A program made the translations under genes and the position numbers. From positions 96,001 through 160,000 of the forward strand of contig CAVXLD010000005.1 in assembly GCA_963762565.1 (NCBI GenBank): a DNA stretch of 64,000 nucleotides, read 5' to 3'. Source of the stretch: an uncultured Verrucomicrobiae bacterium. GTDB lineage: Bacteria; Verrucomicrobiota; Verrucomicrobiia; Chthoniobacterales; JAFAMB01. A model generated the notes under the pieces. It was not told the DNA's origin, did not search any database, and saw nothing but the letters and a program-made list of their open reading frames with translations. Shown here piece by piece: positions 76 through 63,902 of the stretch; positions within the stretch are counted from its first letter, which is position 1, and every line of letters starts with the position of its first letter.

Positions 76-483
76 ATGAACGAACCCACGCCCCAACCTG
101 AAGGCGAACCGATGATCCGCGCGATCGCGATGCCGGCTGACTCGAATCCTTCGGGGGACATATTCGGCGGCTGGTTAATGTCGCAGATGGATTTGGCAGC
201 GGCCAACGCCGCTTGCCGCCGTTCGCGCGGACGTTGTGTAACCGTTGCCGTCGACGGCATGGTTTTTCATGAACCCGTATTTATCGGGGATGAAGTCAGC
301 CTTTATTGTACCGTGATCCGGGTTGGCAGGACATCGATGACCATCCGAGTGGAGGCCTGGCGGCGCAGCCGGACAAGTGAGGCTCGGACCAAAGTCACAG
401 AGGCCCTCTTTACCTATGTCGCCGTTGACGAGAACAGGAGGCCGAGGGCGGTGCCGGCAGAGGCAGAGGTGAAAGGTGATTAG
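76..483 (+). CDS. yciA: acyl-CoA thioesterase (hotdog fold, YciA family)
   Basis: Motif AMPADSNPSGDIFGGWLMSQMDLAA...VTVAVD..F..PV.IGD. Confidence 0.9.
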   Translation: MNEPTPQPEGEPMIRAIAMPADSNPSGDIFGGWLMSQMDLAAANAACRRSRGRCVTVAVDGMVFHEPVFIGDEVSLYCTVIRVGRTSMTIRVEAWRRSRTSEARTKVTEALFTYVAVDENRRPRAVPAEAEVKGD

Positions 484-628
484 TGATTGGTGATTGGTAG
501 TAGGAGGGTCAGAAGGTTTTCGAGGATTGCGATGATGTGCGCATATGATGAGCGCTCCGATTCTGTCGCGCCTTGGCCACCAATTACTTTTATTATTCAC
601 CAATCACCAATCACCAATCACTTCTCAC
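468..628. repeat. cassette bounded by inverted heptamer arrays (GTGATTG)n ... (CAATCAC)n
   Basis: 468-497 ggtgaaaggtgattagtgattggtgattgg; 597-628 tcaccaatcaccaatcaccaatcacttctcac; both flanking stop codons lie in the arrays. Confidence 0.9.
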
Positions 629-1419
629 TGTTTGAGCTGCGCTTCTCGGTGGCTCAAATAGGCCTGTCTGACCGCGATGTACGGATCGATCGCTGCCTCT
701 TTCATTTGTTCGTAGGTACGAACGCTACCCGGTGATCGGACCACGAATCGTGAGGCTGAGACCGAGTAGCCGACGACATTGCTGATAAGCCCGTAGTTAG
801 TAAAGATCAGATACCAGTTGAGGGGATTCAGGGCGAAGTCGCCGGCGTAGCCGGTTAGATCGCGGACAGTCGACGGACCCAGCAGAGGGATAACCAAATA
901 AGGGCCGGGTGAGAATCCCCAGCGAGCGAGGGTTAATCCGAAGTCTTCCGCTGGAACATCGGCCAGGGAAGAAACATGGTCGGAGACGCGAAAGAGGCCG
1001 CCTATCCCCACAGTGGAATTCACGACGAACTTACCGACTTCCTGTCCTGAGCGAACGAACCGGCCTTGCAGGACGTTGTTCCCGAACCGGATAGGAAAAT
1101 CGAGGTTGTCGAAAAAGTTCGAAAGACCGGTGCGAACCTTTTGCGGGACGATGTGCTCATATCCGCGCGCGATAGGCTTGACAGCGTGGATGGTCAACGA
1201 GTCGTTGAGCTTGAAATTAGTGTGGTTGAGGCGCTCAAACGGATCATCCACTTTCTCCACTGGTTCATTACCGAGCTCGTCCCCTGAAGCTGTGAGCGGT
1301 TTAGCGGCCGGCGTCTTTTGGGAAGACTTCGCGGTTTTCGTCTTGGGTTGTTTCGTTTGATCAGCAAAACCCGAAACGCAGGTTAGAAAAACTAGCAGGG
1401 TAGGGATAAGGTAGTTCAC
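625..1419 (-). CDS. mlaA: MlaA/VacJ family lipid-asymmetry protein
   Basis: DPFERLNH..F.LND, NSTVGIGGLF, EDFGLTLARWG..PGPYLVIPLLGPSTVRD, DPYIAVRQAY. Confidence 0.93.
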   Translation of the reverse strand: MNYLIPTLLVFLTCVSGFADQTKQPKTKTAKSSQKTPAAKPLTASGDELGNEPVEKVDDPFERLNHTNFKLNDSLTIHAVKPIARGYEHIVPQKVRTGLSNFFDNLDFPIRFGNNVLQGRFVRSGQEVGKFVVNSTVGIGGLFRVSDHVSSLADVPAEDFGLTLARWGFSPGPYLVIPLLGPSTVRDLTGYAGDFALNPLNWYLIFTNYGLISNVVGYSVSASRFVVRSPGSVRTYEQMKEAAIDPYIAVRQAYLSHREAQLKQ

Positions 1420-2060
1420 GAGTTTGGATTGATTGGCTCAGCAAGTTTAGCTTCAAGAGTCTTAATGACGGCTGCCGCTCCGCCGCGCCGTACCAGGTCG
1501 TCGAATTGAGCCCGGTAATTAGCCACGAAGCTCACCCCCTCGATAAGAACGTCATAGATACGCCAGCCACCAGAGAGATTGACCAGGCGATAGACGACCG
1601 AGAACGGTTTATCGCTGCTGGGGGAGGTAACCCGAGTTGTAATTTCGCATCGGTCCGGCGCCAGCGAGACGCTTTTACCATAAGTGATGTTCGGTTTTTG
1701 CGTCCCAACTACCCGAGCAGCGTAGATCCGGATCACGAGCCGGCTGAAGAGGTCGATTGTTTTTTGTTGATCGGTGGGACTGAACTGTCTCCAGGCAGGT
1801 CCGATGGCTTGGCGAGTCACGAGCTCGAACGAAAAGTCTTTCTCCAACAACGGTCGAGCTCGGTCAGCAAGCGCCTCGCTACTCTGACCGGAGTAAGCGA
1901 GAGCCAAAACTTGGTCGACCTCGCTGTGAAGCTGGGATACCGGATCGGGCGGGGCAGCGGCGAATGACAGATGACAGATGACAAATGACAGATTTATAAC
2001 CGCGATGGGACGCCTGCATCGACGGAGGCGATGGCCGATTTGGCCTATAAAGCTCCTCAT
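1416..2060 (-). CDS. mlaC: MlaC/Ttg2D phospholipid-binding protein (start at 2060 or 2105)
   Basis: GWRIYDVLIEGVSFVANYRAQF motif; position in mla operon; overlaps the mlaA start. Confidence 0.88.
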   Translation of the reverse strand: MRSFIGQIGHRLRRCRRPIAVINLSFVICHLSFAAAPPDPVSQLHSEVDQVLALAYSGQSSEALADRARPLLEKDFSFELVTRQAIGPAWRQFSPTDQQKTIDLFSRLVIRIYAARVVGTQKPNITYGKSVSLAPDRCEITTRVTSPSSDKPFSVVYRLVNLSGGWRIYDVLIEGVSFVANYRAQFDDLVRRGGAAAVIKTLEAKLAEPINPNS

Positions 2061-2117
2061 CCATCGATCGATTATGGCTCGCTGAGATGTATTCGAATTT
2101 GTCATCTGTTATTTGTT
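1964..2117. repeat. cassette bounded by inverted (ATGACAR)n / (YTGTCAT)n arrays, overlapping the mlaC 5' end
   Basis: 1964-1993 atgacagatgacagatgacaaatgacagat; 2097-2117 atttgtcatctgttatttgtt. Confidence 0.8.
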
Positions 2118-2132
2118 CCGGCCACCGCCGGA

Positions 2133-2631: not shown

Positions 2632-3012
2632 ACCGCGAATGGACACGAATAGACACGAATAAAAATCTCACGCAAAGACGCTAAGACGCAAAGGTAAGAC
2701 GATCTTAACCACAGATGAACGCAGATTTACGCAGATAAATGGATTCTTGGAAGGCCACGGCGAAAAAGCAACGCATCCAGCGACCAGACTACGGCTCCGC
2801 GATTTGCCGACCAACTCAGCAGATTCTTGTCTCGTTCTGCATCTCATCTGCGTAAATCTGCGTTCATCTGCGGTTGGTCTTTTTTTTGCGTTCTTTGCGA
2901 TCCTTTGCGGCTAATCCGAATTTGAGACGTCGATTTGCGGTTGGCGGTCGGCGGTTACCGGTTTCTCGGTTGCGAGAATCAATCTGTCATTTGTCATCTG
3001 TCATCTGTCATT
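2632..3012. repeat. composite nested cassette (10-mer, 8/9-mer and 7-mer arrays) inside the mla operon
   Basis: aaccacagatgaacgcagatttacgcagat (~2708) is inverted to atctgcgtaaatctgcgttcatctgcggtt (~2846-2875); flanked by cgcaaaga-type, gacacgaat and ctgtcat arrays. Confidence 0.85.
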
Positions 3013-4532: not shown

Positions 4533-4579
4533 CACGGCGTCTTAATTCGCTTTATGAAGGGCGAATGGCAAGTGGGAGC

Positions 4580-4810
4580 GTTTGGCGTTCGGCGTTCGGC
4601 GTTCGGCGTATCGGCGTATCGGCGTATCGGCGTAAACGCCCGCGTTGGGCGCTGCAAACGGATAGGACCTATAGGACTGATGGGACTAATAGGATGCACA
4701 TATAGGTCCCATAGGTCCTATAAGTCCCATTCGGTCGCGGCGCGGATTCGCGGCATCCTGTGCCATCGTCCGGCTACGCCCACAGTTGCTCACGCCGAAC
4801 GCCAAACGCC
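4580..4810. repeat. nested cassette: (TTCGGCG)n/(TATCGGCG)n ... (CGCCRAA)n with an inner inverted 9-mer pair
   Basis: 4580-4633 ggcgttc/ggcgtatc arrays; 4662-4730 ataggacctataggactgatgggact...gtcccataggtcctataagtcccat; ~4793-4810 cgccgaacgccaaacgcc. Confidence 0.85.
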
Positions 4811-6279: not shown

Positions 6280-6341
6280 AGGAGTTCAAGGAGTTCAAGG
6301 CCTGCCGCGACGTAGGCTTGGCGAAGTCGGGGACTTCAAGG
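6280..6341. repeat. AGGAGTTCA array with an embedded hairpin element (inverted copies 40378-40446, 49386-49445)
   Basis: aggagttcaaggagttcaaggcctgccgcgacgtaggcttggcgaagtcgggga. Confidence 0.8.
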
Positions 6342-6363
6342 CCGGTATGAGGCGCGAAGCGCT

Positions 6364-6488
6364 GGGAGGGATCGCGTCCTCGCGATCCGCTCTATTAACG
6401 AAGCCGAGGATGTTTCCTCATCGTGGATGAAAATAGCGCTTTGGCCGGTGGCATGTCCTCGCGGCGCGCGGGGACGCGCGCCCTCCCC
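6364..6488. mobile_element. REPIN/MITE-like element about 125 bp with GGAGGG-palindrome ends (homologues 19819-19939, 30061-30190)
   Basis: Ends gggagggatcgcgtcctcgcgatcc / ggcgcgcggggacgcgcgccctccc; shared core tattttcrtccrcgat...cctcggcttcg.taa. Confidence 0.75.
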
Positions 6489-6807
6489 GATGTTACACGC
6501 TGGGGCTCCGCGGGAGGGTTGGAGATGCTTTCAGGGGCTTCGCCCACTTCGATCAACCCAGGGGCTCAAGCCATGGGCTATGGTCTATAGCCGCCTCGCG
6601 GCAGCTAGTCGCTCGGGTCGAAACGAATCGTGAGCAGTACCCATGAATCCAAATCGAAATAAGATTCGACCTGGTCTGGCGGCCATTTCGCATTCGGTTT
6701 GAAGACCAACATGAAGCCGCCCGTGCCAGAATCGAGTGTCGCGCATTCAGCGCCGACACGCCGACACGCCCCTCCTAGCTCCTAGATTCTAGCTCCTAGC
6801 TCCTGTT

Positions 6808-7206: not shown

Positions 7207-7360
7207 GAGGAGCTAGGAGCTAGAATCTAGGAGCTAGGAGAGGCGGGTTCACATGGGTCCCATTCGGTCGCAGCGTCCAACGCGCCCGAGCACTGGACAC
7301 GCTCGTAGGCCGAATCGTTCGCCCCCTCCTAGCTCCTAGATTCTAGCTCCTAGCTCCTCC
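7207..7360. repeat. cassette bounded by inverted aggagctaggagctagaatctaggagctaggag arrays
   Basis: Near-perfect inverted pair 7209-7241 / 7326-7358; the same motif occurs at ~6773, 21579, 57494, 59357. Confidence 0.9.
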
Positions 7361-13293: not shown

Positions 13294-13389
13294 CGCTTCG
13301 CGCATAGCCGAGCGAAGCGCATGACAGATTACAAATGACAGATGACAGATCGGATCTGGGCGAGGCAGGGCGAGCAATCGTTCTCGGGG

Positions 13390-13477
13390 CGCCGAACGCC
13401 GAACGCCGAACGCCGAACGCCGAACGCCGAACGCCAAACGCCAAACGCCAAACGCCAAACGCCAAACGCCAAACGCC
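13390..13477. repeat. heptamer array (CGCCGAA)6(CGCCAAA)6 within composite cassette 13294-13555
   Basis: Counted directly. Confidence 0.95.
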
Positions 13478-13640
13478 CCATCCATCTGCGTAAATCTGCG
13501 TTCATCTCACCCCGGAGAATTTCGGGGCTGCGGTTGGTATTTTCTTCGCGTCGATTCGCGTCCATTCGCGGTTGGCCTAGAATTTGTTGATTTTTGGCCA
13601 GGTCGGGGAACCTATTGTGGGCTAAGGCAGATTCTTGAGC

Positions 13641-16729: not shown

Positions 16730-16895
16730 GGCGGCGTGTGGGCGTTTGGGCGTAAGTGGACGGAGTGGACTAAGTAGACCCAGTGGACACGGCCGACCCC
16801 AGGGGCGCCGCAGGTAAGAACCTCCACTACGTCTACTCAGTCCACTAGGTCCACTTCGTCCACTTTCGCCGATACGCCGGAACGCCCATACGCCG
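16730..16895. repeat. nested cassette: GGGCGT-type 8-mers enclosing inverted AGTGGACnn 9-mer arrays
   Basis: gtggacggagtggactaagtagacccagtggac ... tccactacgtctactcagtccactaggtccacttcgtccact. Confidence 0.8.
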
Positions 16896-17038
16896 AATCG
16901 GACCGCCGTCGGGCGGTTCCGAGCCGCATGAATAAAAGACCCTTGCGCTCCGTCTCTAGCTCGGCAACGGTTTGAGCCGAAGCTCAGGACTGCGTCTGCG
17001 GTCTCTGAGCTTTGCTTTAACTAATAGGACATAAGTAC

Positions 17039-17665: not shown

Positions 17666-17732
17666 CCGGCGAGAAAGCTAACAGACAGGTAGCTGCAGGG
17701 GGAGCCGCGAGCTGGGCTCTCCCTGGCAGTAA

Positions 17733-18082
17733 GGAGCTAGGAGCTAGGAGCTAGGAGAGGCGCCACGCCTCAATATTTGAATAGCCGCAAAACCTGTCGC
17801 GCCGAAGGCTTGGCGAAGGCGGAAAGGCGCAAAAGGCACAAAAAGAAAGCAAAACTCAACCGCAGCCCCGATATTCTCCGGGGTGAAATTAACGCAGATA
17901 AAATCTCAAGAGCAGCGTTTTGATTTTACGACTCTTTATCTGCGTCTCTCTGTGTTCATCTGCGGTTAAGCCTTTTTGTGCTTCGGTGGCTTTGTGTGAG
18001 GTTTTCTTTGCGTTCCTTGCGTTCTTTCGCGGCTAATTATTTGTCCCCCCTTTTGCGGCTTTTGCGGCTTTTCGCGGCTATT
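17733..18082. repeat. composite nested cassette (ggagcta, gccgcaaaa and cgcagat arrays plus inserted hairpins)
   Basis: atagccgcaaaa... inverted to ...ttttcgcggctat; aaccgcag...cgcagataaa inverted to tttatctgcg...ctgcggtt. Confidence 0.8.
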
Positions 18083-21205: not shown

Positions 21206-21525
21206 GCAACGTGCGATCGCCCAGCGCCTGGAGGGGAGCCGCTTTGGCGTGTATTAGGTGACCTCGCGATATTTGCTTTAGCGCTCCGGTCGGCCAAAGA
21301 ATATCGCAACAGGCGGCTCCCGCGAATGACCCAACGGTTCGCAGCTCTACGGTCGGCGGCTGAACGAATCGAAACTCACACGTGAATGCATCACGCTGGG
21401 TTACTCCCGGGAGCCGCTTGTTTTCACACGCAATGGCCGGACTACCTTTGGGAGGAAATGTGCTAGGGCGGCGATATGCGCACCAAAGCGGCTCCCCTCC
21501 AAGCGCTGGGCGATGGCACGCTGTA
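21206..21525. mobile_element. palindromic MITE/REPIN-like element about 300 bp (homologue 25236-25515)
   Basis: cccagcgcctggaggggagccgctttg ... caaagcggctcccctcca(a/g)gcgctggg with inner gcggctcccg / cgggagccgc pair. Confidence 0.8.
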
Positions 21526-22790: not shown

Positions 22791-22956
22791 GAGGCGGCGC
22801 TTCGCGAATAGCCGATAGCCGAGCGAAGCGCATAACAGATGACAAATGACAAATGACAGATTCGACCTGTGCGTGGCAGACGGCAATTGGGGCGCCGCAT
22901 ACCGATCCGAGTTGCCATCGGCTATCGGCTATTGGCTATTGGTCATGCGCGAAGCG

Positions 22957-25110: not shown

Positions 25111-25235
25111 GAGCAATGGGGTTGCATGACATGTGGATCGATTGTGGACGGCATGCAAGGGGCAGGTGAGAAGGAGAGGTGAAAGGTGATTGGTGATTGG
25201 TGGCGGTCGAGTCGTGGAGCGATGGTCGTACCCGA

Positions 25236-25515
25236 AGCGGGCGGAGAAACCCAGCGCCTGGAGGGGAGCCGCTTTGCAGGTCGGCAGCTTTGTCGGGCGG
25301 CAGCCACCGAAAGCATTCGGGGTAGACAGGCGGCTCCCGGGAATAGTCCCTGGCGATGCTTTTGCCCGGCGTCTCTGTTTCGATTCCGTTAGTCGAGGCG
25401 AGTTCAACAGAGCTGCAAAACGCTGGCACATTCCCGGGAGCCGCCTGCTGCGAACCTGCAAAGCTGCCAACCTACAAAGCGGCTCCCCTCCAGGCGCTGG
25501 GTTTCTCCGCCCGCT
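25236..25515. mobile_element. 280 bp palindromic MITE/REPIN-like element with ~57-bp terminal inverted repeats
   Basis: 25236-25292 versus 25459-25515 near-perfect inverted match; inner gcggctcccgggaat / attcccgggagccgc. Confidence 0.82.
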
Positions 25516-25576: not shown

Positions 25577-26398
25577 ATGGATCAGAACCCCTCATTGCGA
25601 ATTGCATTCAGTACTTTGGCGTTCACGGATCGGAACCTGGAGGCGGCGATCTCGCTTGGCAGCTCGCTAGGCTACGCTGGTGTCGAGCTGCGGGTCATTG
25701 ACGGAAAACTATTTGATTCTTCCTTGTCCGCCGTCGACCGCGCACGCGTTAAGCAGACGGTTGCGGCCGCTCGTTTGCCGATTGTGGCGGTCGGTAGCTC
25801 GGTCGTTCTCACCAAAGAAGAACCTGGTCCTGAACTGCGCCGAATGCTCGAGCTCACGAACGAATGGGAATCGCCGTTTATCCGCGTCTATGGCGGTCAG
25901 TTATCCGAAGATTCTGCGACTCGCCAAAAGCAGATGGAGTCGGCGGTTAAAGTGTTGGAGGAAGCGATCCCGATCGCCGAACGCCTTGGTGTGGTTATGC
26001 TGATCGAGACGCATGATGGCTTTTCCGCTTCTTCGGTGACGGCGGAACTCCTGGCCAAGGTTCCATCAAAATGGGTCGGCGCCATATGGGATAGTCTTCA
26101 CCCACATCGGATGGGGGAAACACCCACTGAAGTTTACCAGAACATTGGTGCTCGAACTTTTCACGTCCACATTAAGGATGGCCGGCGTTCAGCGGCACAC
26201 AAAGGCGGTTGGCAACTCGTGCCGTTAGGTGAAGGAGAGGTACCGGTTCCGGAAGTGATCCAATTGCTGGTTGCCGGTGGTTACAAAGGTTTTCTCACGG
26301 TCGAGTGGGAAAAATATTGGCACCCTGAGATCGAAGCGGCTGAAGTGGCTCTTCCACATGAGTTGAAGGTGCTGCAGGGCCTTGTGAATAGCCGATAG
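25577..26398 (+). CDS. sugar phosphate isomerase/epimerase (TIM barrel)
   Basis: GYAGVELR; IETHD; WD..H; HVHIKD; GEGEVP; VEWE. Confidence 0.88.
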   Translation: MDQNPSLRIAFSTLAFTDRNLEAAISLGSSLGYAGVELRVIDGKLFDSSLSAVDRARVKQTVAAARLPIVAVGSSVVLTKEEPGPELRRMLELTNEWESPFIRVYGGQLSEDSATRQKQMESAVKVLEEAIPIAERLGVVMLIETHDGFSASSVTAELLAKVPSKWVGAIWDSLHPHRMGETPTEVYQNIGARTFHVHIKDGRRSAAHKGGWQLVPLGEGEVPVPEVIQLLVAGGYKGFLTVEWEKYWHPEIEAAEVALPHELKVLQGLVNSR

Positions 26399-26413
26399 CC
26401 GATAGCCAAGAGG

Positions 26414-26602
26414 AGAGCCTCGCGCAGAGGACGCGAAGGACGCAACGGATTGTCTATTAACGGGGTTCAACCGGGAGGTTGGCCAGTCGTTTAATACCGT
26501 TTTTAAGATGTTCCTCGCCGAGATTGATCAGGTATCCGAGGACTCAATCCAGATTCTTCCTTGTCTTTCGTTGCGTCCTTTGCGTCCTTTGCGCGAGGCT
26601 CT
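26414..26602. mobile_element. cassette with 34-bp terminal inverted repeats made of GGACGCAAA-type 9-mers
   Basis: 26414-26447 versus 26569-26602, 2 mismatches. Confidence 0.88.
26457..26540 (-). pseudogene. C-terminal remnant of a GxxExxY (PD-(D/E)XK-like) protein
   Basis: Translates LGYLINLGEEHLKNGIKRLANLPVEPR*, preceded across a 1-nt shift by SGLS; matches my recollection of the GxxExxY C-terminal consensus (..GL.LG.LINF....LK.GIKR..N). Confidence 0.7.
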
Positions 26603-27256: not shown

Positions 27257-27383
27257 CTACGAGCGTCACACAAAGCCACGATGACACAAAGATCAAGGTT
27301 CGGGTTAATAGCTCCGCCTTCGCCAAGTCTATGGCGCGACTAGCTGCGAAAAGGCACAAAAAGCGCAAAGAAAAAAGCGAAGA

Positions 27384-27556
27384 AAATCTCACGCAAAGAC
27401 GCAAAGACGCAAAGGTTAAGAGGGTGATCTATAAACAATGCGCGGCTCTAGTAGGCTGCGCCCTTTTCAACGCCGAATTTCATCTGCGTAAATCCGCGTC
27501 CATCTGCGGTTCCACTGTCTTTTGCCTTTGCGTCTTTGCGGCTTTGCGTGAGATTT
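27384..27556. repeat. cassette with inverted aaatctcacgcaaagacgcaaagacgcaaagg ends (same family at ~2663, 36368, 52191-52361, ~56535-56563)
   Basis: 27384-27415 versus 27525-27556. Confidence 0.85.
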
Positions 27557-34614: not shown

Positions 34615-34826
34615 GGTAGGGCGAGGCTCCCGAAAGAGCGTGGGATTGATCAAAGCTCAGCCGCCCAAACCTCACCAATCAACAAGCTACGTACCTAAAA
34701 CGTGCCGAGCCGTGGTCTGTCATGGGCCACGGCTCGGCGCGTCTCTTGGCCTCGCTCAATGGTTGTTCCAGTGCAGGTAATCTTCCCTTGGTCAATGGCT
34801 CGGTCTTGCGGGAGCATCGCCCTACC
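34615..34826. mobile_element. GTAG-type REPIN-like element (homologue 43833-44041, partial at 59173), nested within GTGATTG/CAATCAC arrays
   Basis: ggtagggcgaggctcccg ... cgggagcatcgccctacc; inner gccgagccgtgg...ccacggctcggc hairpin. Confidence 0.78.
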
Positions 34827-34858
34827 AGGCTTCGGCCCCACCAATCACCAATCACCAA

Positions 34859-36256
34859 TCACTTCACCACGGCCGGCGTCTCGTCTTTCTGGCGTTCGAT
34901 GTAGCCGTATACCTCAGGGAGGATAAATATAGCGGATAGGAAGGCGATGAGTGACGAGAGCGAGACTATGGCTGTCGCTATGGAGATACCTACGTGTTCG
35001 AACAGGACCGGGAATAGGAAGATGGTAACGAAATTGGGTAGTTTGACGAAGATATAACCGAACCCGGAGGCGGTGGCTTTGTATCTAGAGGGAGCGACCA
35101 TTGAGCAGATCGTCATCCCATTGGATGCAGACCAGTAATGGAACCACATTAGAGAGGCAGCGGCGATTGGGAGCGCGATTCTCCAGTCCAGGGCGAGGAA
35201 GATTGCTGCCGCCACTAATGAAAGCCAGGTCCCGCCAAAACCCCATTGAGAGATACCGCGATGACCTAGTTTCGGTGTGATCGCAGGAGCAACAAATCCG
35301 CTGATCGTGGCGATGACATAGATCCCAGCTAAGAGAAAGTTAATGCTCACCATGTCCTTGATTCCGATTAGCAAGAAAATGATCGGAAGATAAAAGCCAA
35401 ACGCGGAGAACTCGATTCCTTGGGCCGCGTTCGAGATCCAGGCGTAAATACTGGCTCGCCGGCGGGTCTTGTCGCTCCAGATATCCGCTAGAAAGTCGCG
35501 GGTGCGCGGTCGCTGGACCTGGTAATCTTCATCCGGCAACATGTCCAACGGGTCATTGAATATCTGTTTAGCGACTTTCTTGGCTTGTTTAAATTTGCCG
35601 GATTGAATCAGGGAAAGAGCGGTATCAGAAATATCGAGCCGCATCAGGAAAAGGATGAGGGCAGGAACGGCTCCTAAGGCGAGCCCGATTCGCCAGAGCA
35701 AATCGTGGTTCATGCCGCTGAGGAACATGATTGTGACCACGATGATACAGCCGACCTCGCCCAGACCGAACATACCTTGCCAACGGTTGCCCATGACTTC
35801 GCGTTTACCTTTCGGCATCGATTCCATGATGTAGGCGTAGCCGGAGGCGACATCGCTCCCCAACGGTATACCGAGCAACAATCGGATTATAACGAGTTCC
35901 CACATGTTATGGGCGAAAGCCTGAGTTATGGCTAGAACAACAAATAGCGCCATGGTAGTCAGGAAAACCACGCGGCGCCCAAGACGATCGGCTGCCCAAC
36001 CGCCGATCACGGCGCCGATTAACGCACCCAATTGTACTGAAGCCGATGCCAGGCCCAGTAAGGCTGCATCTGGCTTGAACTCGTCTTTGATGAAGATCAA
36101 CAGAAACGAGATCGAGTACAGGTCCCATGCTTCGATCAGAATGGTGGTGATCATCAGCCAACCGGTACGGGTACCCGTTTGTGTCCCTTCCATGTTGAGC
36201 ACATGGGCCGCGGCGCTATCAGACAACTTTTGCAGTTCTTCCTGACTGGAAATCAT
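34859..36256 (-). CDS. MFS transporter (sugar-porter-like)
   Basis: GGWAADRLGRR motif A; about 12 TM helices; LPE near the C-terminus. Confidence 0.9.
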   Translation of the reverse strand: MISSQEELQKLSDSAAAHVLNMEGTQTGTRTGWLMITTILIEAWDLYSISFLLIFIKDEFKPDAALLGLASASVQLGALIGAVIGGWAADRLGRRVVFLTTMALFVVLAITQAFAHNMWELVIIRLLLGIPLGSDVASGYAYIMESMPKGKREVMGNRWQGMFGLGEVGCIIVVTIMFLSGMNHDLLWRIGLALGAVPALILFLMRLDISDTALSLIQSGKFKQAKKVAKQIFNDPLDMLPDEDYQVQRPRTRDFLADIWSDKTRRRASIYAWISNAAQGIEFSAFGFYLPIIFLLIGIKDMVSINFLLAGIYVIATISGFVAPAITPKLGHRGISQWGFGGTWLSLVAAAIFLALDWRIALPIAAASLMWFHYWSASNGMTICSMVAPSRYKATASGFGYIFVKLPNFVTIFLFPVLFEHVGISIATAIVSLSSLIAFLSAIFILPEVYGYIERQKDETPAVVK

Positions 36257-41002: not shown

Positions 41003-41226
41003 CCGCGAAAGAAATCTCACACAAAGGCTCGAAGCCACGAAGGGAAGACATTAATAGCCGCAAAAACCTGTCGCGCCGTAGGCTTGGCGGAGGCGGAAGG
41101 CACAAAAAGCGCAAAAAAATTTGATTGCCACACGCACAAGCGCGGCTGCGCTTTTCACCTTTCACTTTTTACATCTCACCTTTCACAGTCTTAACCTTTG
41201 TGGCTTTGTGTGAGATTTTATTCGCG

Positions 41227-43815: not shown

Positions 43816-44045
43816 TCAGAGTTCGAGGAGATGGTAGGGCGAGGCTCCCGAAAGAGCGCTCGACGGTCGCAGGGTCGAATGATGCCTCGTCGGTATATTA
43901 GGTGCAACTTCTAAGCGCTGCCGAGCCGTGGGTTACGCAGGGCCCCGGCTCGGCAGCGTTAAGGTGTTGCATCCCATATTTTGGCGAAACACAATCTGGC
44001 TCTGCGACTTCTTTCCGACCATTCTGGAGCCTCGCCCTACCAACG

Positions 44046-44996: not shown

Positions 44997-46222
44997 AGGA
45001 AGACGTCCATTTGGTTTTTGCGGCGAAGAACCCGGACTGCACCTAAACAAACTGCGGCGAGCAGGATGAGACCTTGAAACAAGGGTTGCCAAAGGGCGGG
45101 AGCGTTAAACACGAAGAGAAGATCGCTAATGATGCGCAGAACGAGAGCACCACAGATCGAGCCGATGAAACCGCCTGAGCCGCCGAATAACGAAGTACCA
45201 CCGATGGCAACGGCAGCGATCGAATTCAGTGTGTAAAAGCCGCCTTGGCTGGAGCTGGCTTCACCGGAGAGCGAGATCAGCGATAGTAAGAGACCGCCGC
45301 ACGCAGCTAATAAACCGGCTAAAGCATAGGCAGCGAACCGGGCGCGTCCGATCGCCAGGCCTGACATATAGGCAGCGCGTTCTGAGGATCCTACGGCGTA
45401 GCAGTTCCGGCCAACAGCGAGGTTACGGAACGGCCACCAGACGAAGAGAATGGTTCCGACTAACAAAAGGAAGGTCGAGGGGATCCCGAAAACATCATAG
45501 GTTAGTGCATTGCTGAAATCTTCGTTCACCTCGCCGCCTGGAGTGGGACGTAACAAAAGCGCGATCCCAAAGTAGATGGCGCCGGTGGCTAGAGTGGCGA
45601 TGATCGGTTGGATCCGGCCGATCACAACGATGGTCGCGTTGATCATACCGGCTAAGAGGCCGCTGGCCAAAATGGCGAGAGTAGCGAGCGCCGTTTGACC
45701 GGGTGACCCGTTCAGGATCACTGAAGCAAGACAGGAGGTCATCGTCATCACCATCCCGACGGATAAATCGAACCCGCCGGTCAGGATGACCAACGTTTGC
45801 GCCATGGCGACGTAGGCTAAGACGACGCCTTTGTTAGAGACCGAAGTTAAGACATTGGTGGATAGGCCGTTTGCCTGTTGGGAAGCGAACAGGATGAACA
45901 TCACGGCGAACACAAAGAAACTGAGCAGCGGGCCGGCGTTCCGTTTCCAAAACCGGGACCACGAATGGACGCCTTCGCCAGCTACGGCGCGACAGGCTAC
46001 GAATGGGCGGGAATGACTCTGCGGCGGAGGTTGTTGGCGGAGCGGTTTCGGTTGTGTGAGCGGGGGCGGTCGGTGGTTCCGACCGAGTCGGCCTCGCAAG
46101 CGAGGCGCGCTCCACGGGTGGCGACCCCTCCGGCCTCGCAAGCGAGGCGCGCTCCACGGGTGGCGACCCCTCCGGCCTCGCAAGCGAGGCGCGCTCCACG
46201 GGTGGCGACCCCTCGTGGTCAT
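44993..46222 (-). CDS. monosaccharide ABC transporter permease with repeat-derived N-terminus
   Basis: TGGFDLSVG; AVGSSERAAYMSG; IAAVAIGGTSL.GG.G. Confidence 0.88.
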   Translation of the reverse strand: MTTRGRHPWSAPRLRGRRGRHPWSAPRLRGRRGRHPWSAPRLRGRLGRNHRPPPLTQPKPLRQQPPPQSHSRPFVACRAVAGEGVHSWSRFWKRNAGPLLSFFVFAVMFILFASQQANGLSTNVLTSVSNKGVVLAYVAMAQTLVILTGGFDLSVGMVMTMTSCLASVILNGSPGQTALATLAILASGLLAGMINATIVVIGRIQPIIATLATGAIYFGIALLLRPTPGGEVNEDFSNALTYDVFGIPSTFLLLVGTILFVWWPFRNLAVGRNCYAVGSSERAAYMSGLAIGRARFAAYALAGLLAACGGLLLSLISLSGEASSSQGGFYTLNSIAAVAIGGTSLFGGSGGFIGSICGALVLRIISDLLFVFNAPALWQPLFQGLILLAAVCLGAVRVLRRKNQMDVFL

Positions 46223-48005
46223 TGTTCTCGCTAAGGTTCAGGGCAGTGGTGATGAGGTTATGTTCGTTGAGGTCTGGACCGCTGAGCTCGCGTATCAATC
46301 GGCCTCCGTAACAGACCAAGACTCGGTCGCACATCCCGATGAGCTCTTCGTAGTCAGTTGAATAGAAGAGAATGCCGAGACCGGTTCCGGCTAGTTCACG
46401 CATCAGACGGTAGAGCTCTTGTTTGGTACCGACGTCGATGCCGCGGGTCGGATCGTTCAGGAGCAGGATCCTGGGTTGTTTCAGCAGCCATTTTCCGATG
46501 ACAACTTTTTGCTGGTTACCGCCGGACAAGGTTCTAACTGGTGCGGACAGGTTATTGGCCAGGATGCGGAGTTTGGCGACGATGTCATTGGTGGCAGCTT
46601 GTTCGCGCGCACGATCGACGAGACCGAACCGGCTCAGGTCCGGGGAAGCCGCCAGCACCAGGTTGTCTTCGATCGACATCGGGAGAAGTAATCCTTGGGT
46701 TTGGCGATCTTGAGGGATCAACGCTAAACCGATGTCGCGGGACTTGGCTTGGCGCGGGTGTTCGATGGTCGTTCGGCGGCCGTCGATGTAGACTTCGCCG
46801 GTCAGACCGCGAAGCACGCCGAATAAGGCCAAGAGAAGTTCGCTTTGGCCTTGGCCGTCTAGGCCTCCGAGGCCGACGATTTCGCCGGGGGCAAGTTTCA
46901 GGGAGATGCCGTTGAGGACGTGGTACCAGGTCAGGTCTTTTATTTCCAGGAGAGGTGGCCTTTGCGTGTCGGCGGGTGGGCGTTTGGGCGTGTCGGCGTG
47001 GCCCGACTTCGCCTCGTCGTTTAGACTCCGAGAGGCTACGTCGGGTCTGGCGAGAGTGGGCCTTTCGTTTTTCTTGGGGTAGGCTCGGGCGACTTCGCGG
47101 CCGATCATCATCGGGACGATTTCTTCGGTTGTCCGGCTGGACATGGGGAACGTCTCGATATGTTTGCCGTTTCGGAAGACGGAACAGATGTCGGCCAGAG
47201 CGGAGATCTCCGGCATTCGATGGGAGATATAGAGGACGGCGACACCTTGTTCGCGTAAGCCGCGAACGATCCGGTAGAGGTGTTCTACGTCTCTCGCGGT
47301 CAGGGCTGAGGTCGCTTCATCCATGATGATGAGGCGCGGGCTGCGGATCAGCGCTTTCGCGATCTCGACCATTTGTTGGCGGGAGAGTGGTAAATCTTTG
47401 ACTCGTTCATCCGGATGAATGTCGCCGCAGCCGACTCGTTGTAAGACTTGTTCGGCGATCCGGCGCTGGCGGCGGTGATCGATTAGCCCGAAACGTTTCG
47501 GCGGGTCAGCGATCGAGATGTTATCGGCGACGGAAAGATCGGGTAAAAGCGACAACTCCTGGAAGATGCAGACGATCCCGAGCGCTGCTGCATCGGCCGG
47601 TGATGCGAATTTTATTGGTTTATCTTCTACGTAAATCTCGCCTTCGTCCGGACGGGTAACGCCGGCGATCAGCTTCATTAATGAGCTTTTACCGGCGCCG
47701 TTCTCACCGACCACGGCATGGATGGTGCCGAGCGAACAAGCGAAATCGACGTTCGCGAGCGCGGTCACGCCGCCGTAACGCTTGGTGATGGCGTGTAAGC
47801 GTAGGAATGGGTTCGGTGTTGAGATAGCGGGCGGGAATGATGGCGATTCGCTGGGACGGCCGTGAGAGGTGAGAAGTGAGAGGTGACGATGCGACGAGGG
47901 ATGGACTTTGGAGTGGTGCGGGTGGTTGGTGTTGGTGCGAATAGGACCTATAGGACCAATGAGACCTATATGGCGCGAGACCGACCCTACACCGGCCAGT
48001 CCCAA
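45834..48005 (-). CDS. sugar ABC transporter ATP-binding protein (two ABC domains) with repeat-derived termini and linker
   Basis: GENGAGKS; IMDEATSAL; LSGGNQQK; LNDPTRGIDVG. Confidence 0.9.
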   Translation of the reverse strand: MGLAGVGSVSRHIGLIGPIGPIRTNTNHPHHSKVHPSSHRHLSLLTSHGRPSESPSFPPAISTPNPFLRLHAITKRYGGVTALANVDFACSLGTIHAVVGENGAGKSSLMKLIAGVTRPDEGEIYVEDKPIKFASPADAAALGIVCIFQELSLLPDLSVADNISIADPPKRFGLIDHRRQRRIAEQVLQRVGCGDIHPDERVKDLPLSRQQMVEIAKALIRSPRLIIMDEATSALTARDVEHLYRIVRGLREQGVAVLYISHRMPEISALADICSVFRNGKHIETFPMSSRTTEEIVPMMIGREVARAYPKKNERPTLARPDVASRSLNDEAKSGHADTPKRPPADTQRPPLLEIKDLTWYHVLNGISLKLAPGEIVGLGGLDGQGQSELLLALFGVLRGLTGEVYIDGRRTTIEHPRQAKSRDIGLALIPQDRQTQGLLLPMSIEDNLVLAASPDLSRFGLVDRAREQAATNDIVAKLRILANNLSAPVRTLSGGNQQKVVIGKWLLKQPRILLLNDPTRGIDVGTKQELYRLMRELAGTGLGILFYSTDYEELIGMCDRVLVCYGGRLIRELSGPDLNEHNLITTALNLSENNDHEGSPPVERASLARPEGSPPVERASLARPEGSPPVERASLARPTRSEPPTAPAHTTETAPPTTSAAESFPPIRSLSRRSWRRRPFVVPVLETERRPAAQFLCVRRDVHPVRFPTGKRPIHQCLNFGL
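46089..46214. repeat. 3 x 42-bp perfect tandem repeat containing the GTGG REP
   Basis: (cggcctcgcaagcgaggcgcgctccacgggtggcgacccctc)3. Confidence 0.95.
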
Positions 48006-48047
48006 GGCCTACCTCTCACTTCTCACCAATCACCTCTCACCTCTCAC
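47862..48047. repeat. cassette bounded by inverted (GTGAGAG)n / (CTCTCAC)n arrays over the ATPase 5' end
   Basis: 47862-47886 versus 48011-48047; inner ataggacct 9-mers. Confidence 0.82.
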
Positions 48048-50856: not shown

Positions 50857-51032
50857 GGGGGGCGGGGAATGTGAGTGGTGAGAGGTGGCGCAAGCAGTAA
50901 GCAGCAGTCAGTGATTGGTGATTGGTGATTGGTGCTGCCGGCAGGCACATTTGCTGTCGGCTATTTGCTATTCTGGCTTGGCTATTGGCTATCGGCTATT
51001 GGTCATTCGCGCTGCGCTGTAAGCGCAGCGCG

Positions 51033-52133: not shown

Positions 52134-52549
52134 TCTGGGGATCCTTTAATAGCCGCAAAAGAGCACAAAGAACGCAAAAAAAAGAGCGAAAATCTCACGC
52201 AAAGCCGCAAAGGTTAAGACGTAAGCCGGAATAGCCGCAAAAAGGCGCAAAAAAAAGGAGTTCGGGGGTGCCCAGTAACTCCTGCCTTTGTGGCCTTTGT
52301 GATCTTACTGTGAAAGTCATTCTGTCTTACGTCTTAATCTTTGCGTCTTTGCGTGAGATTTTTCTTAGTGTGGCGGCTTTCTCGGCCTCGTCCCGTGGTT
52401 GCGGGAAGGCAGCGGTCCAGGGTGGAGCGAAGCGCTTGCGCGCAGGCGATAACACCGTCATTTTAGGGGGATTGTTGAACAATCGTGTTGCATTCTGTGC
52501 CGGCTCGGAGTTGCCGGTGAATTTTTCTCATGGAGGTGCACACGCCTAG

Positions 52550-61145: not shown

Positions 61146-61358
61146 GAGGTGAGAAAACGTGATTGGTGACTAGTGATTGGTGATTGGTGGAGCGCGGGGG
61201 ATAGCGGGCCAAGTGGACTTTAGTGGACTTAGTGGACGCCGTGGACTGGAGTGGTCGGGAGTAGTAGGGACGGAGAGGATGATCTCCGGAGCAGGCGACG
61301 AATTTTAACGGCCGGATTCGTTTGAGCGTTTTGGTAACAGAGATGGTCTTTGTTCCAA

Positions 61359-62159
61359 ATGAATTTTAACGATCCTCTCTCTCCGCGAGTACCAACGGTT
61401 CAACTTGGCGTCCGGCGGACGTTTCTAGTTTCGATTTTAGGTCTGAGCTTGGTTATTGGGTCCGCGCGAGGGGATGAGGTTTCGCCATCGCCAACTGCGG
61501 CATCCGCGCCGATGGCTAACCCGACGCCGGAGGGCAAAATCAACTTGGAAGCGACTGCGCGTAAGCGATTGCCGAATACGGTCGCTAATGTGGTTCTGGG
61601 GATTCAGGTCGAGGGACGCACTGGCGATGCGGTTTCAGGCTCGCTGGCTGATCGATCCCACACCTTGCTCGACTTTCTGCGCCAGCAAGGAGTGGAGCGG
61701 CTCCGCACGGAAGACGTCAGTTATCAGCCGCAGATTGAATCCGGCCGTAATGGAGCACCGGATCGCATTGTAGGTTACACGGGCAGCGCGAGTATCTCGT
61801 TTCGGACGACTCCGGACAAGTTAGGCGCGCTCTTAGGCGGGAGCTTGGACCACGGAGCAAATACGATTAGTCAGACGCAGTTTAGTCCATTGGAAAGCGA
61901 GATCGACGCTGCCCGGCAAGACCTGGCTATTGAAGCGACGAAGACGGCGCTAGCTCGAGCCGATGCGTTAGCCCAGGCGACGGGGTTGCGCGTGGTGCGA
62001 ATCGAGCAGATCAACGTCGCGTCTGAAGAGAACATCGTGCCGGTTCCGCTTGGCGGTATGAAAATGATGGCGCCGGCGCGGGCACCAATCGAGACGGCCT
62101 CTGGAGAACAGGAAGTGGCGGCGCGGGTTTCGGTGCAGGTGGGCGTCGCGAAGCGCTAA
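61359..62159 (+). CDS. SIMPL (DUF541) domain protein
   Basis: Signal-like segment; A...ALARADALAQATG; PIETASGEQEVAARVSV. Confidence 0.82.
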   Translation: MNFNDPLSPRVPTVQLGVRRTFLVSILGLSLVIGSARGDEVSPSPTAASAPMANPTPEGKINLEATARKRLPNTVANVVLGIQVEGRTGDAVSGSLADRSHTLLDFLRQQGVERLRTEDVSYQPQIESGRNGAPDRIVGYTGSASISFRTTPDKLGALLGGSLDHGANTISQTQFSPLESEIDAARQDLAIEATKTALARADALAQATGLRVVRIEQINVASEENIVPVPLGGMKMMAPARAPIETASGEQEVAARVSVQVGVAKR

Positions 62160-62322
62160 CAGCGCGCTTCGCGAAATGGTCAATAGCCGATAGCCAATAG
62201 CCGAGGCGGCGGGCTAATGACACATGACAGATCGGAGGCCCGAGGAAGCATCGATCCTGTCGATTTTAATTTATCTTTTATCGATTTTATATATACGAGA
62301 GATTGGACGACGATCATCCGGT

Positions 62323-62751
62323 ATGAAAACAGAAGCGATCGGGCAGGGTGAGGGAGCAGAAGACCCCAGTTATCCAGAGCATCAGCATCTTCAACCCGCT
62401 AGCGCGAGTGCAATTCGCAAGCGGAGGTTTTGGGTTGTCCCGGTTTTGGCCGCTATTCCGACCCTGTTGGTGATCCTGCTTATTTTTCTTCTGAAGGATT
62501 ATGACTTTCCGAAGGAAGTCGTGGGTATTTTGTTCATTACCGTCGTGATACCCGCGGCGCTGATCTGCGAGAAGCTTGGGCTTGGGCAGTTTAATATTTT
62601 GGGGGGTAGCACGATCCCGGACTGGTTGTTTTACAGTGTCATGATTCTGCTGGTGTACCTCTATAGTTTGGCGTTGGTGGCGTCGGGACGGGGGATTGTG
62701 TCGTTGATGGGGCGAGCGCTGCGAGGGGGGCGAAAGGTGATTGGTGATTAG
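62323..62751 (+). CDS. hypothetical membrane protein (3 TM)
   Basis: Three hydrophobic segments; stop lies inside a GTGATTA array. Confidence 0.6.
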   Translation: MKTEAIGQGEGAEDPSYPEHQHLQPASASAIRKRRFWVVPVLAAIPTLLVILLIFLLKDYDFPKEVVGILFITVVIPAALICEKLGLGQFNILGGSTIPDWLFYSVMILLVYLYSLALVASGRGIVSLMGRALRGGRKVIGD

Positions 62752-62953
62752 TGATTAGTGATTAGTGATTGGTGATTAGTGATTGGTGGAAGAGAAGCTG
62801 TCCGTTCGGCGGCCTTCTCGGTCGGGTAACCGTCGGGGGTGTTTTCGCGAGGAGGGGGCAAATTTCGGTTAGTAATATTTTGCCAGGAGTTGTCCTGGTT
62901 TGGTTCTATTGTTCGTCGAGCGGGAGGAACTGAAATAACCGAGAGGTAAACAA

Positions 62954-63448
62954 ATGATTACATCGCCAAAGATCGTTGAACGCATTGAACAACCGTATGT
63001 GGCTATTAAATCAGTGGTGAAAATGGAGGAGATAGCACCAACGGCCGGGCAGCTGTTCGGGGAAGTTTTCGGGTGGTTAGGTGGGCGCGGTTTAACGCCG
63101 GCCGGAGCCCCGTTTTTCAAGTATAACGTTGTCGACATGGAACGCGGGCTCGAGATTGAGTTTGCGCTGCCGACGGCAGCGCCGGCGACTGGAGATGATC
63201 GGGTTTTAGCGGGTGTGCTTCCTGCAGGCCGGTATGCCTCATTGATGCACCTAGGCCCGTATGATCAGCTTAAGGACGCTAATGCGGCGCTTGGGGAATG
63301 GATCAAAGAGCAAGGGCTTACCGTCGACGTGGTGAAGAGCCCGGAAGGGGACAGATTTGGGTGCCGGTTGGAAATTTATCTTAATGATCCAGGGGTGGAG
63401 AAGGATCCAGCGAAGTGGGAGACGGAAGTGGCGTTTAAGCTCGCGTAA
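62954..63448 (+). CDS. GyrI-like small-molecule binding domain protein
   Basis: PAGAPFFKY; LPAGRYA...H.GPYD.L; EIYL.DP; SD gaggt upstream. Confidence 0.88.
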   Translation: MITSPKIVERIEQPYVAIKSVVKMEEIAPTAGQLFGEVFGWLGGRGLTPAGAPFFKYNVVDMERGLEIEFALPTAAPATGDDRVLAGVLPAGRYASLMHLGPYDQLKDANAALGEWIKEQGLTVDVVKSPEGDRFGCRLEIYLNDPGVEKDPAKWETEVAFKLA

Positions 63449-63468
63449 ACGCCCTTCAAGAAATCAAA

Positions 63469-63902
63469 TTCACCACAGAGACACAGAGGACACCGAGAAA
63501 AGACTCGAACCGCAGATGGACGCAGATTTACGCAGATAAAGACAGGAGCCTGACTGAGGCAGGGGTTGAACGCACTCCTTCTGCCGGCAGCACATTGAGA
63601 TTTGGAATATCCGCAGATTACACAGATTACGCAGATTTCGCCTTTAGGCTTGGGCACGTCACTTTAGATAAAAAAAAGTTCTGACTCGGTTACGCTTTCG
63701 GTAGCCCAAGGACTGATCCGAAGCCCACGACGAAATCTGCGAAATCTGTGTAATCTGCGGATATTAACGTTTTCCAGAATGTTGCCAGCCCATGACGCGT
63801 CTCTCAACGTCAGCTGCGATCTGCTCCCAGTCTCCATCTGCGTAAATCTGCGTCCATCTGCGGTTGAGGTTTTCTCTGTGTTCTCTGTGTCTCTGTGGTG
63901 AA
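63469..63902. mobile_element. three concentric cassettes with microsatellite-built TIRs
   Basis: 63469-63501/63870-63902 (2 mismatches), 63508-63537/63836-63865 (perfect), 63606-63640/63731-63765 (1 mismatch). Confidence 0.9.

Follow-up and report, generated by a model that had tools for sequence, protein, structure and literature searches.

Repeated sequences in the spaces between bacterial genes are known in several forms. Bacterial interspersed mosaic elements (BIMEs) have a mosaic structure, the short tandemly repeated repetitive (STRR) heptamers of cyanobacteria and the small dispersed repeats of Nostoc combine short intergenic tandem heptamers with nested small repeats, and quasipalindromes are subject to template switching. 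The DNA considered here, 64,000 nucleotides from an uncultured Verrucomicrobiae bacterium (positions 96,001 to 160,000 of contig CAVXLD010000005.1, assembly GCA_963762565.1; hereafter the window, numbered from its first letter), has intergenic spacers that resemble several such systems and follow a purine polarity of their own. Repetitive extragenic palindromes (REPs) are conserved and tied to REP-associated tyrosine transposases (RAYTs), and the verrucomicrobium O. terrae is rich in REPs (PMC3733652); REPINs have been described as well (PMC3116915). In Xanthomonas, intergenic arrays of the heptamer GGGAATC, typically of about four units, form convergent pairs, and that study counts 70 and 75 close opposite-strand pairs in two genomes, gives no link to insertion sequences (ISs) and leaves the mechanism unknown (Rehm et al., 2015, PMC4692102). 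Among the long simple repeats of bacteria, heptamers are reported, secondhand, to be the commonest; TAACTGA arrays, described in Beggiatoaceae, cyanobacteria, and Bacteroidetes, lie upstream of start codons, with 169 direct sets and 1 indirect (PMC4679880). Two inverted ends are also the mark of the non-coding MITEs, or miniature inverted-repeat transposable elements (PMC3184786), and of the eukaryotic foldback transposons, whose long inverted ends consist of short tandem sub-repeats (PMC4079207). A literature search gave no description of repeats like those of the window in Verrucomicrobia or Chthoniobacterales. The explanation that we favour, with confidence that is about evenly balanced, is that the spacers are occupied by a lineage-specific family of hairpin-forming mosaic repeats of the REP/REPIN/BIME kind, copied in trans, adjusted by slippage, and kept symmetrical.

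Tandem arrays with periods of 6-18 were collected with Tandem Repeats Finder (TRF); one listing held 113 rows and our own run 110, which merge into 97 arrays. Ten dinucleotide shuffles of the window gave 5-16 rows, and a 50 kb control from E. coli K-12 gave 13. On a crude map of open reading frames (ORFs), by which ~82% of the window is coding and 18% non-coding, 81 of the 97 arrays are mostly intergenic, and most of the other 16 lie within 5′ ORF extensions that have no homology support. At least one array is present in 38 of the 46 spacers longer than 30 bp. Period 7 is the dominant class (41/97), and array length is independent of period: the median is 26 nt (interquartile range 23-30) whatever the unit, near the size of the unique stems discussed below. 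A preliminary description of this DNA had proposed that most spacers contain short tandem arrays drawn from a limited vocabulary, and every unit that it listed was recovered; those found are GTGATTG, GTGAGAG/GTGAAAG, ATAGCCR, ATGACAR, CTAGGAG, GGCGTTC, GACGAG, GGAGTGAT, CGCAAAGA, AGGAGTTCA, GGACGCAAA, AGTGGACnn, ATAGGACnn, and CGCAGATnnA. The eight inverted array pairs that it named are likewise all present, at 475-498/597-621, 1964-1993/~2096-2116, 4578-4634/4792-4810, 7208-7240/7326-7358, ~26428-26450/26571-26593, 34590-34617/34839-34862, 47862-47886/48011-48047, and 63474-63498/63872-63897, the arms at 2096-2116 and 26428-26450 being too degenerate for TRF and recognised by eye.

The convergent opposite-strand pairs of intergenic heptamer arrays are shared with Xanthomonas (PMC4692102). 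However, one G-run unit with quadruplex potential is described there, whereas many units occur here, nested in mosaics and mostly without G-runs (GTGATTG, ATGACAG, CTAGGAG, ATAGCCG, CGCAAAGA, and other main units contain no run of three G). The long Xanthomonas arrays do not stand at the same genes in two species (PMC4692102), whereas the arms described here persist at orthologous spacers. Tandem heptamers that are intergenic, carry a stop codon within the unit, and contain nested small repeats also recall the cyanobacterial STRR and TAACTGA arrays, which belong to other phyla and other units and for which no general inverted pairing or polarity is reported. The cyanobacterial frame in which the repeats had first been placed does not fit their host. 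Six related loci from five metagenome-assembled genomes (L001-L006, 75 kb in all), retrieved by a genome scan with MlaE as the query, are all labelled Verrucomicrobiota or Chthoniobacterales; their MlaE identity to the window is 84-94%, none is identical to it, and the gene order YciA-MlaA-MlaC-MlaD-MlaF-MlaE-P450 is kept in L001, L003, and L004. Because of these labels and the conserved synteny, the host is a soil-type verrucomicrobium and not a cyanobacterium, Chthoniobacterales being a soil order within Verrucomicrobiota, and the gene content, e.g., an ADOP permease, agrees with a placement in Verrucomicrobiota/Chthoniobacterales.

The central observation concerns the orientation of these sequences. 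With array orientation assigned by purine excess, the left sides of spacers hold 45 plus and 4 minus arrays and the right sides 12 plus and 32 minus arrays, so purine-rich units lie left and their complements right (Fisher p=8e-11). In 41/46 spacers the left half is purine-richer than the right (p=4e-8), whichever of the four classes the orientation of the flanking genes falls into, and 39 of 43 spacers keep the bias once the TRF arrays, 21% of spacer bases, are masked; in the E. coli control it is absent (14/34). Since a layout of X followed by its reverse complement is identical read from either strand, the polarity rule is strand-symmetric: from either gene boundary, the strand that enters the spacer in the 5′ to 3′ direction is purine-rich. 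The bias of this inward strand is general, extending to AAA, AGA, GGA, and GAG, with 129 AAAA against 29 TTTT. The tetramer GTAG was considered as a polarity tag and rejected, as its 32 inward and 19 outward occurrences make a weak bias and the polarity is one of general purine richness, not of one tetramer. The earlier view that the arrays are not products of random slippage thus agrees with a strong polarity that holds in masked spacers.

Read from the gene boundary inward, the 92 arms are mosaics of recurring modules of ~26 nt, some of them tandem arrays and others REP-like stems. A CTAGGAG block of 25-33 nt that carries the odd unit CTAGAAT has 7 matches in the window; CGCAGATGRA-CGCAGATTTA-CGCAGATAAA, with identical variant order, also has 7, TCTCAC-GCAAAGNC-GCAAAG has 8, CGCGAATGGAC has 4, and two REP-like stems each occur as 2 inverted pairs. 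Composite motifs of 14-35 nt are present in 2-10 copies each per 64 kb, which would extrapolate to hundreds per genome. For five motifs, forward copies lie left and reverse copies right in 7/7, 8/8, 4/4, 4/4, and 6/7 cases. As the same odd internal variants are found at several loci, whole modules were copied between loci and not grown in place, and to that extent the suggestion of a proliferating family is borne out. Among module pairs that co-occur at least three times, the majority outer-to-inner order is followed in 25/27 co-occurrences (for example, GTGARAG outside GTGATTR 6:0 and outside AGTGGACnn 3:0); this order was defined after the fact, and the figure is therefore only suggestive.

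It could be argued that the arrays are ordinary microsatellites, generated by polymerase slippage in place, and that the pairing is a by-product of a small vocabulary. The dominance of heptamers, which are reported to outnumber other long simple repeats in bacteria (PMC4679880), and the varying copy numbers of orthologous arrays agree with this explanation, but it has to account for the same irregular variant order at unlinked loci, for a polarity that survives array masking, for non-repetitive motifs of 20-35 nt that obey the same rules, for an array length of ~26 nt regardless of period, and for units conserved across species beyond the neutral level. In our judgement it is very improbable, and slippage in place as the sole explanation is largely refuted.

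The inverted arms fold. Folded as single strands, 20 of the 45 spacers reach z<-3 relative to dinucleotide shuffles and 22 reach z<-2, and in 29/45 the fold is better than that of a control made by reverse-complementing one half (p=1.5e-4); the strongest fold is at 63449-63910 (z=-20). Tandem arrays are not needed for this, since hairpins among the strongest, at 43816-44045 and over most of 21062-21647 and of 25093-25576, have none and are made of REP-like unique stems. These non-array stems, at 21220, 25250, 34615, and 43833, are short, conserved, extragenic, and imperfectly palindromic modules, whereas the array modules, of ~26 nt as well, are tandem and not palindromic. Copies of the REP-like palindromes have perfect outer stems of 26-27 nt and inner stems of 13-19 nt at similar spacing. 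Drawings of the minimum free energy folds suggested that their linkers might be private mirrored sequences; direct alignment gave 0.47-0.59 from arm to arm within a copy and 0.35-0.56 between copies, no better than unrelated DNA, and as the linkers are not complementary within a copy, a whole-length inverted duplication was dropped. Among the 29 co-directional spacers, only 8 have a sense strand that folds better than the antisense; the G-rich plus strand is the better folder regardless of sense, and thus there is no sign of selection on the transcript. It is also worth noting that GC skew is positive in all 4-kb bins of window 1-64000, at a window GC of 0.53-0.59, and that the plus strand out-folds the minus strand in most spacers, which is consistent with a single replichore and with mismatches on the G-rich strand that tolerate G:T pairing.

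In several respects these spacers resemble the REP, REPIN, and BIME sequences of proteobacteria, which are also extragenic, with conserved modules of 20-35 nt, inverted hairpin doublets, and less conserved linkers arranged in mosaics, dense at gene ends and within operons, and of fixed intrinsic doublet polarity. The non-array stems of the window (GGTAGGGCGAGGCTCC... and CCCAGCGCCTGG...) each hold a small palindrome, and one stem begins with GTAG, further likenesses to REPs; the inverted doublets form hairpins in the spacers with z<-3 counted above, and the paired motifs stand forward on the left and reversed on the right. The differences are that most modules here are internally tandem, with units of 7-10 nt, that 15-20 types are present instead of 1-3, that a purine-rich inward strand is common to all modules and whole spacers are polar, that the phylum is Verrucomicrobiota, and that no RAYT was found among the ORFs scanned in 139 kb. 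The preliminary description knew of no characterised mechanism. This holds only partly: for Xanthomonas, heptamer-array pairs in convergent orientation have been published (PMC4692102), and REP, REPIN, and BIME sequences are close analogues.

The six related loci allow the spacers to be followed between species. Array density there is 0.66-2.0 per kb with the same ordering, and a manual count from array-order strings gives 27 ordered and 4 reversed plus/minus pairs. In the MlaC|MlaD spacer (S2), the left ATGACAR arm of the window is 0.92-0.97 identical to that of three species, the right arm 0.76-0.83, and the core 0.64-0.70, while the 4-fold degenerate sites of MlaE and MlaD are 0.57-0.63 identical. 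Modules are therefore conserved well above the neutral level at orthologous sites, and cores and linkers drift. The S2 stem is kept in 4/4 genomes and is nearly invariant; compensatory changes affect 3 of 56 pairs, all in the core. In other orthologous spacers, the outer module family is retained and unit variants differ in both arms together. In the YciA|MlaA spacer (S1), GTGATTG/CAATCAC of the window corresponds to GTGAGAN/NTCTCAC of L003 and L004, and in L001 the spacer contains an additional inner hairpin of GTAAGCR x6 and YGCTTAC x8. The MlaE|P450 spacer (S4) has GGCGTTC/GGCGTATC in the window, GGCGTGT in L002, GGCGATAC in L001, and GGGCGAAT in L003. Arms are more complementary within a genome than across genomes (39 vs 20 in S1, 52 vs 21.5 in S4). 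At MlaD|MlaF (S3), CGAATGGACA is a left-hand module in one species and is present as its reverse complement on the right in another, so arms are lost independently, and the polarity is never violated there. The length of this spacer, ~415 bp in the window, falls to ~112 bp in L006. Outer modules are common to the species and inner ones differ, and the module content of orthologous spacers varies among the relatives, a point in favour of the preliminary description.

Such conservation also fits an explanation without mobility, the main rival of the favoured one, in which the spacers are gene-boundary elements selected by the host and kept by purifying selection. The paired stems of ~26 bp and their purine-rich and pyrimidine-rich flanks would act on transcripts from both directions. 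They might act as hairpins that protect or process 3′ ends, as bidirectional terminator-like structures, as barriers to out-of-frame or read-through translation, or as sites for nucleoid or RNA-binding proteins. Arms conserved far above 4-fold sites within the mla operon, stems that match perfectly from one paralogous copy to the other where the linkers have become random, and arms that are flush with, or contain, the stop codons of neighbouring genes all speak for it. On the inward strand, stops in all three frames occur within 60 nt in 31/86 arms, compared with 11/86 on the outward strand, a modest excess accompanied by a stop density of 0.049 against 0.030 (p=3e-4); the outermost arrays are mostly 7-mers, and their period is a multiple of 3 in 9 of 64 cases, compared with 10 of 29 inner arrays. 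The inward excess of AAAA over its complement is also as expected around bidirectional terminators. However, the three-frame stop bias is the same at 5′ (14/41) and 3′ (17/44) gene ends, the sense strand is seldom the better folder, and 15-20 module sequences would require many readers. A purely structural role predicts covariation and not conservation of sequence, and the S2 stem is nearly invariant. A scan of 1-20 kb for hairpins followed by T-runs, which is blind to stems with long loops, gave 32 sites where shuffles gave 21.8 +/- 4.7, a modest excess, and most of the listed sites lie outside arrays; Rfam 15 gave 0 matches at the gathering score in the window, and a tRNA scan of the window gave 0 as well. 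Selection by the host is regarded as unlikely, though it deserves serious consideration.

Protein family searches were made with NCBIfam for 63 ORFs of the window, with Pfam for 13, and for 37 of the 73 ORFs in the relatives' 75 kb, the other 36 corresponding to genes already named in the window. No GIY-YIG, TIGR02436, or GxxExxY family member was matched among these scanned ORFs of the window and relatives. This bears on the model first proposed for the locus, in which paired arrays are the terminal repeats of gene cassettes, each class travelling with its own protein family (GxxExxY, TIGR02436, RAYT, or GIY-YIG), and the cargo has mostly decayed. Every gene of the window is indeed flanked by inverted arrays, as follows from the spacer rule itself, and an ORF of 120 aa (6808-7170) lies between two identical CTAGGAG modules and was not found at that place in L002. 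However, the array-flanked genes are ordinary housekeeping genes in conserved synteny, and no ORF family travels with any repeat class. Two small array-flanked ORFs have the appearance of secreted proteins and match no family in Pfam or NCBIfam. Decayed cargo is not apparent either, as the cores and linkers, of 60-300 bp, are unrelated between copies. Discrete cassettes with terminal repeats are also difficult to reconcile with whole spacers that remain polar when arrays are masked and with arms that reach into stop codons. We find this model hardly credible. The additional DNA between MlaE and P450 in L001, L003, and L004 was considered as a possible repeat-bounded cassette and set aside, its contents being ordinary genes. 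An L,D-transpeptidase-like gene lies there (L001 9090-9963, L003 4196-5203, L004 6068-7084), intact in L003 and L004 and, in L001, decayed with an internal deletion; neither the window nor L002 has it, and L004 has an additional glycosyltransferase-like gene; both were named from their translations, without a family search.

The favoured mechanism starts from the anatomy described above. In each spacer a poorly conserved core lies between two mutually inverted arms, left and right, assembled from some 15-20 module types of ~26 nt each. Most modules are 2-5 tandem copies of a 7-10-nt unit and the others unique REP-like stems, set in a recurrent outer-to-inner order and always with the purine-rich strand running 5′ to 3′ from the gene boundary inward. 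It is proposed that an enzyme whose gene lies elsewhere, plausibly a transposase of the HUH/RAYT type that recognises single-strand hairpins, spreads or renews the modules in trans, that copy number drifts through replication slippage, and that the likeness of the arms is maintained either by hairpin-templated (quasipalindrome) correction or by selection for the stem. New modules may enter near the centre, which would leave older ones beside the genes. A use by the host, in transcript-end hairpins, out-of-frame stop barriers, or protein-binding arrays, is possible within the same scheme. Like MITEs and foldback elements, the spacers are non-coding with two inverted ends, and the foldback-like ends consist of tandem sub-repeats that fold back; foldback elements are eukaryotic, however, and the target-site duplication, full-length homology, parent element, or IS expected of MITEs was not found in the window or the relatives' loci.

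Several observations weigh against copying in trans by such an enzyme. No transposase, RAYT, integrase, or IS was found among the scanned ORFs of the 64-kb window and the relatives' 75 kb (139 kb), and in the comparison of the window with its relatives no target-site duplication and no clean junction between filled and empty sites could be defined, the orthologous cores not being alignable. What copies share is their stems and not their full length, in contrast to young MITEs or REPINs. One-sided, unpaired, or poorly paired arms are found in about half of the spacers (23/45, z>-2), and arm co-variation was seen in two of three orthologous spacers; in S3 it did not show within the outer 90 nt compared, the shared CGCAGAT module lying deeper. 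The strong conservation of orthologous arms agrees equally with a host function and with mobility, and a purely selfish element gives no obvious reason for a purine-rich inward strand in every module family.

The last of these difficulties is met by a different scheme, in which no transposase is involved and the spacers grow outwards from their centres. Palindromes would break at the centre, for example by hairpin or cruciform cleavage, both 3′ ends would be extended by iterative templated addition of purine-rich units, and the ends would be rejoined, so each round would add an inner pair of modules and the spacer would be a stack of head-to-head, telomere-like “healed ends”. Of the models considered here, it is the only one that predicts the universal polarity directly, as the purine-rich strand would run 5′ to 3′ toward the centre on both sides, as in a head-to-head telomere fusion. 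It also accounts for the short tandem units, the ~26-nt module size, the nesting, the stems that are shared where linkers are unrelated, and the outer modules that are common to species where inner ones differ, and the lack of a transposase among the scanned ORFs is in its favour. However, no candidate enzyme was seen, the long composite arms with fixed module order fit the copying of long templates at least as well, and unpaired single arms would require secondary loss. We know of no bacterial precedent, and we consider this scheme quite improbable.

In the mla region, the YciA|MlaA spacer (475..621) has a core of ~100 nt between GTGAAAG/GTGATTR x3.4 as its left arm and CAATCAC x3.6 as its right (z=-5.7), with arms that co-vary in L001, L003, and L004; in the MlaC|MlaD spacer (1964..2120) a left ATGACAR x4.3 faces a right YTGTCAT x2-3 (z=-5.4). 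The MlaD|MlaF spacer (2636..3011) is a nested mosaic, with CGAATRGACA, TCTCAC-GCAAAGNC, and CGCAGATnnA x3 on the left and ATCTGCGnnn x3, TTTGCGnnC, GCGGTYG, and CTGTCAT x4.3 on the right (z=-5.3). The MlaF ORF ends inside the last of these arrays: at window 3001-3055, it overruns the end of homology to the relatives (3055/3056) by ~18 codons and stops at a TGA supplied by the ATGACAG array, whereas in L001-L004 the gene terminates earlier at a stop of its own. The MlaE|P450 spacer (4578..4810) carries outer GGCGTTC/GGCGTATC arrays and their complement, with arms that co-vary with L002 (z=-5.9), and inside it, at ~4655-4735, a tight hairpin of ATAGGACCT-type 9-mers. Farther along, 6280..6804 has a left AGGAGTTCA module and GGCCTGCCGCGACGTAGGC... 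motif and, on the right, CGCCGACA and CTCCTAG x4.7, and 7208..7358 consists of two identical inverted CTAGGAG modules of 33 nt, each with the CTAGAAT variant unit (z=-8.7). A 30-bp unit repeated x1.9 at 11758-11815, which contains TTGACATTTGTACATCA and lies directly upstream of a GntR-family regulator gene (11819-12238), looks like a duplicated operator or promoter and not like a mosaic module.

The longest array of the window, CGCCAAA x12.6 (88 nt, 13390-13477), stands with right polarity in the spacer at 13321..13570, together with CATCTGCGTA and TTCGCGTCCA and opposite a left ATGACAG x4.3; the hairpin there is not strong (z=+0.4). Just downstream of this array are two adjacent overlapping genes (13635-16723, ~514 aa) that match only the ATPase part of MutS/MutS2, and a link between them and the handling of repeats is speculative. 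The spacer at 16733..16896 has GGCGTGTG and AGTGGACnn arrays on the left and their complements on the right (z=-8.6), and the one at 17732..18079 has CTAGGAG x3.7 and AATAGCCGCAAAA on the left and ATCTGCGTTC, TTCCTTGCG, and CTTTTGCGG on the right. The first copy of one REP-like nested palindrome occupies 21220..21510, with 27-nt outer stems CCCAGCGCCTGGAGGGGAGCCGCTTTG and inner stems of ~19 nt (spacer z=-12.3); its linkers are unrelated to those of the second copy, which lies at 25250-25501 behind a GGTGATT array in the spacer 25185..25501 (z=-12.4). Between them, 22808..22939 begins with a small GC hairpin on the left, followed by ATAGCCG and ATGACAA arrays, and has ATCGGCT on the right (z=-3.3). 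At 26388..26593, an ATAGCCG array and an AGGACGCRA module on the left face TTGCGTCCT x2.6 (z=-9.3), and at 27358..27549, ACGCAAAG x3 faces CTTTGCGT x3, the right arm also holding TCTCACGCAAAG and CGCAGAT modules (z=-4.9). A repeat of at least 80 nt (GGGAGGGCGCGCGTCCCCGCG ... GTATTTTCGTCCGCGATC), with two copies at 19820-19890 and 30062-30130 downstream of unrelated genes, belongs to a further dispersed family that is not based on arrays.

In the second half of the window, the spacer at 34468..34862 has ATAGCCA and GATTGGT arrays on the left and CACCAAT on the right (z=-4.9) and encloses the GGTAGGGCGAGGCTCC REP-like pair at 34615-34826, whose second copy, a nested palindrome at 43833..44041, has no TRF array (z=-15.8). 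The spacer at 41010..41220 pairs ATCTCACACAAAGG.. on the left with CCTTTGTGGCTTTGTGTGAGAT on the right and has a TTTCACC array (z=-7.8). At 46089..46214, between sugar ABC ATPase and permease genes, a perfect tandem of three 42-bp units carries in each unit the dispersed GC hairpin motif GAGCGCGCCTCGCTTGCGAGGCC, which has 7 matches in the window; two long ORFs read through this tandem, because 42 is a multiple of 3 and the units contain no stops. GTGAGAG x3.6 on the left and ACCTCTC x5.3 on the right bound 47862..48047, with an unpaired ATAGGACCT x3.3 inside (z=-5.9), and at 50911..51002, GTGATTG x3.4 and TTGGCTA x3.6 form arms of different families (z=-4.9). The modules AATAGCCGCAAAAG, CACAAAG, and TCTCACGCAAAG on the left of 52148..52365 have their complements on the right (z=-9.1). 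Three successive spacers at 57457-57526, 58131-58377, and 59286-59415 show the usual polarity with ATAGCCR, CTAGGAG, GGAGTGRT, AGTGGACnn, and GACGCAAAAA. The three within 61159..62788 have arrays of left polarity only (GTGATTG, AGTGGACTTT, and GGAGTAGTAG in the first, ATAGCCG in the second, GTGATTR x7.4 in the third), and their hairpins are weak or missing (z=+1.8, -1.3, and -2.6). At 63474..63897 lies a nested palindrome A B C ... C' B' A', with CACAGAGA as A, CGCAGATnnA as B, and CAGATTACA as C; at z=-20.2 its fold is the strongest in the window.

The genes between the spacers are, where named by NCBIfam, ordinary chromosomal ones: the mla lipid-transport operon, P450, oxidoreductases, ABC and MFS transporters, the ADOP permease, a Ser/Thr kinase, and others. 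The longest-ORF calls at 1416-2105, 24040-25548, 33256-34653, 34859-36376, 48081-49454, and 45834-48005 are over-extended; they run 40-150 codons upstream through pyrimidine-rich arms, and their homology begins far later. Pyrimidine-rich arms have no stop codons, and ORF callers therefore carry gene starts through them.

What is new here is the density of the repeats, the many module types, their nesting, their conservation at orthologous sites, and, above all, the polarity of whole spacers from purine to pyrimidine. If it holds genome-wide, about a fifth of the lineage's DNA would be under one strand-symmetric rule that current models of bacterial repeats do not predict. The practical consequence is that gene starts in such genomes are likely over-called, several ORFs of the window being too long at the 5′ end, and one gene has its stop codon supplied by an array. 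The finding also bears on the question of why REP-like modules stay conserved, as orthologous arms are 92-97% identical where neutral sites are ~60% identical, and the many module types and species offer many natural replicates in which mobility can be weighed against host function.

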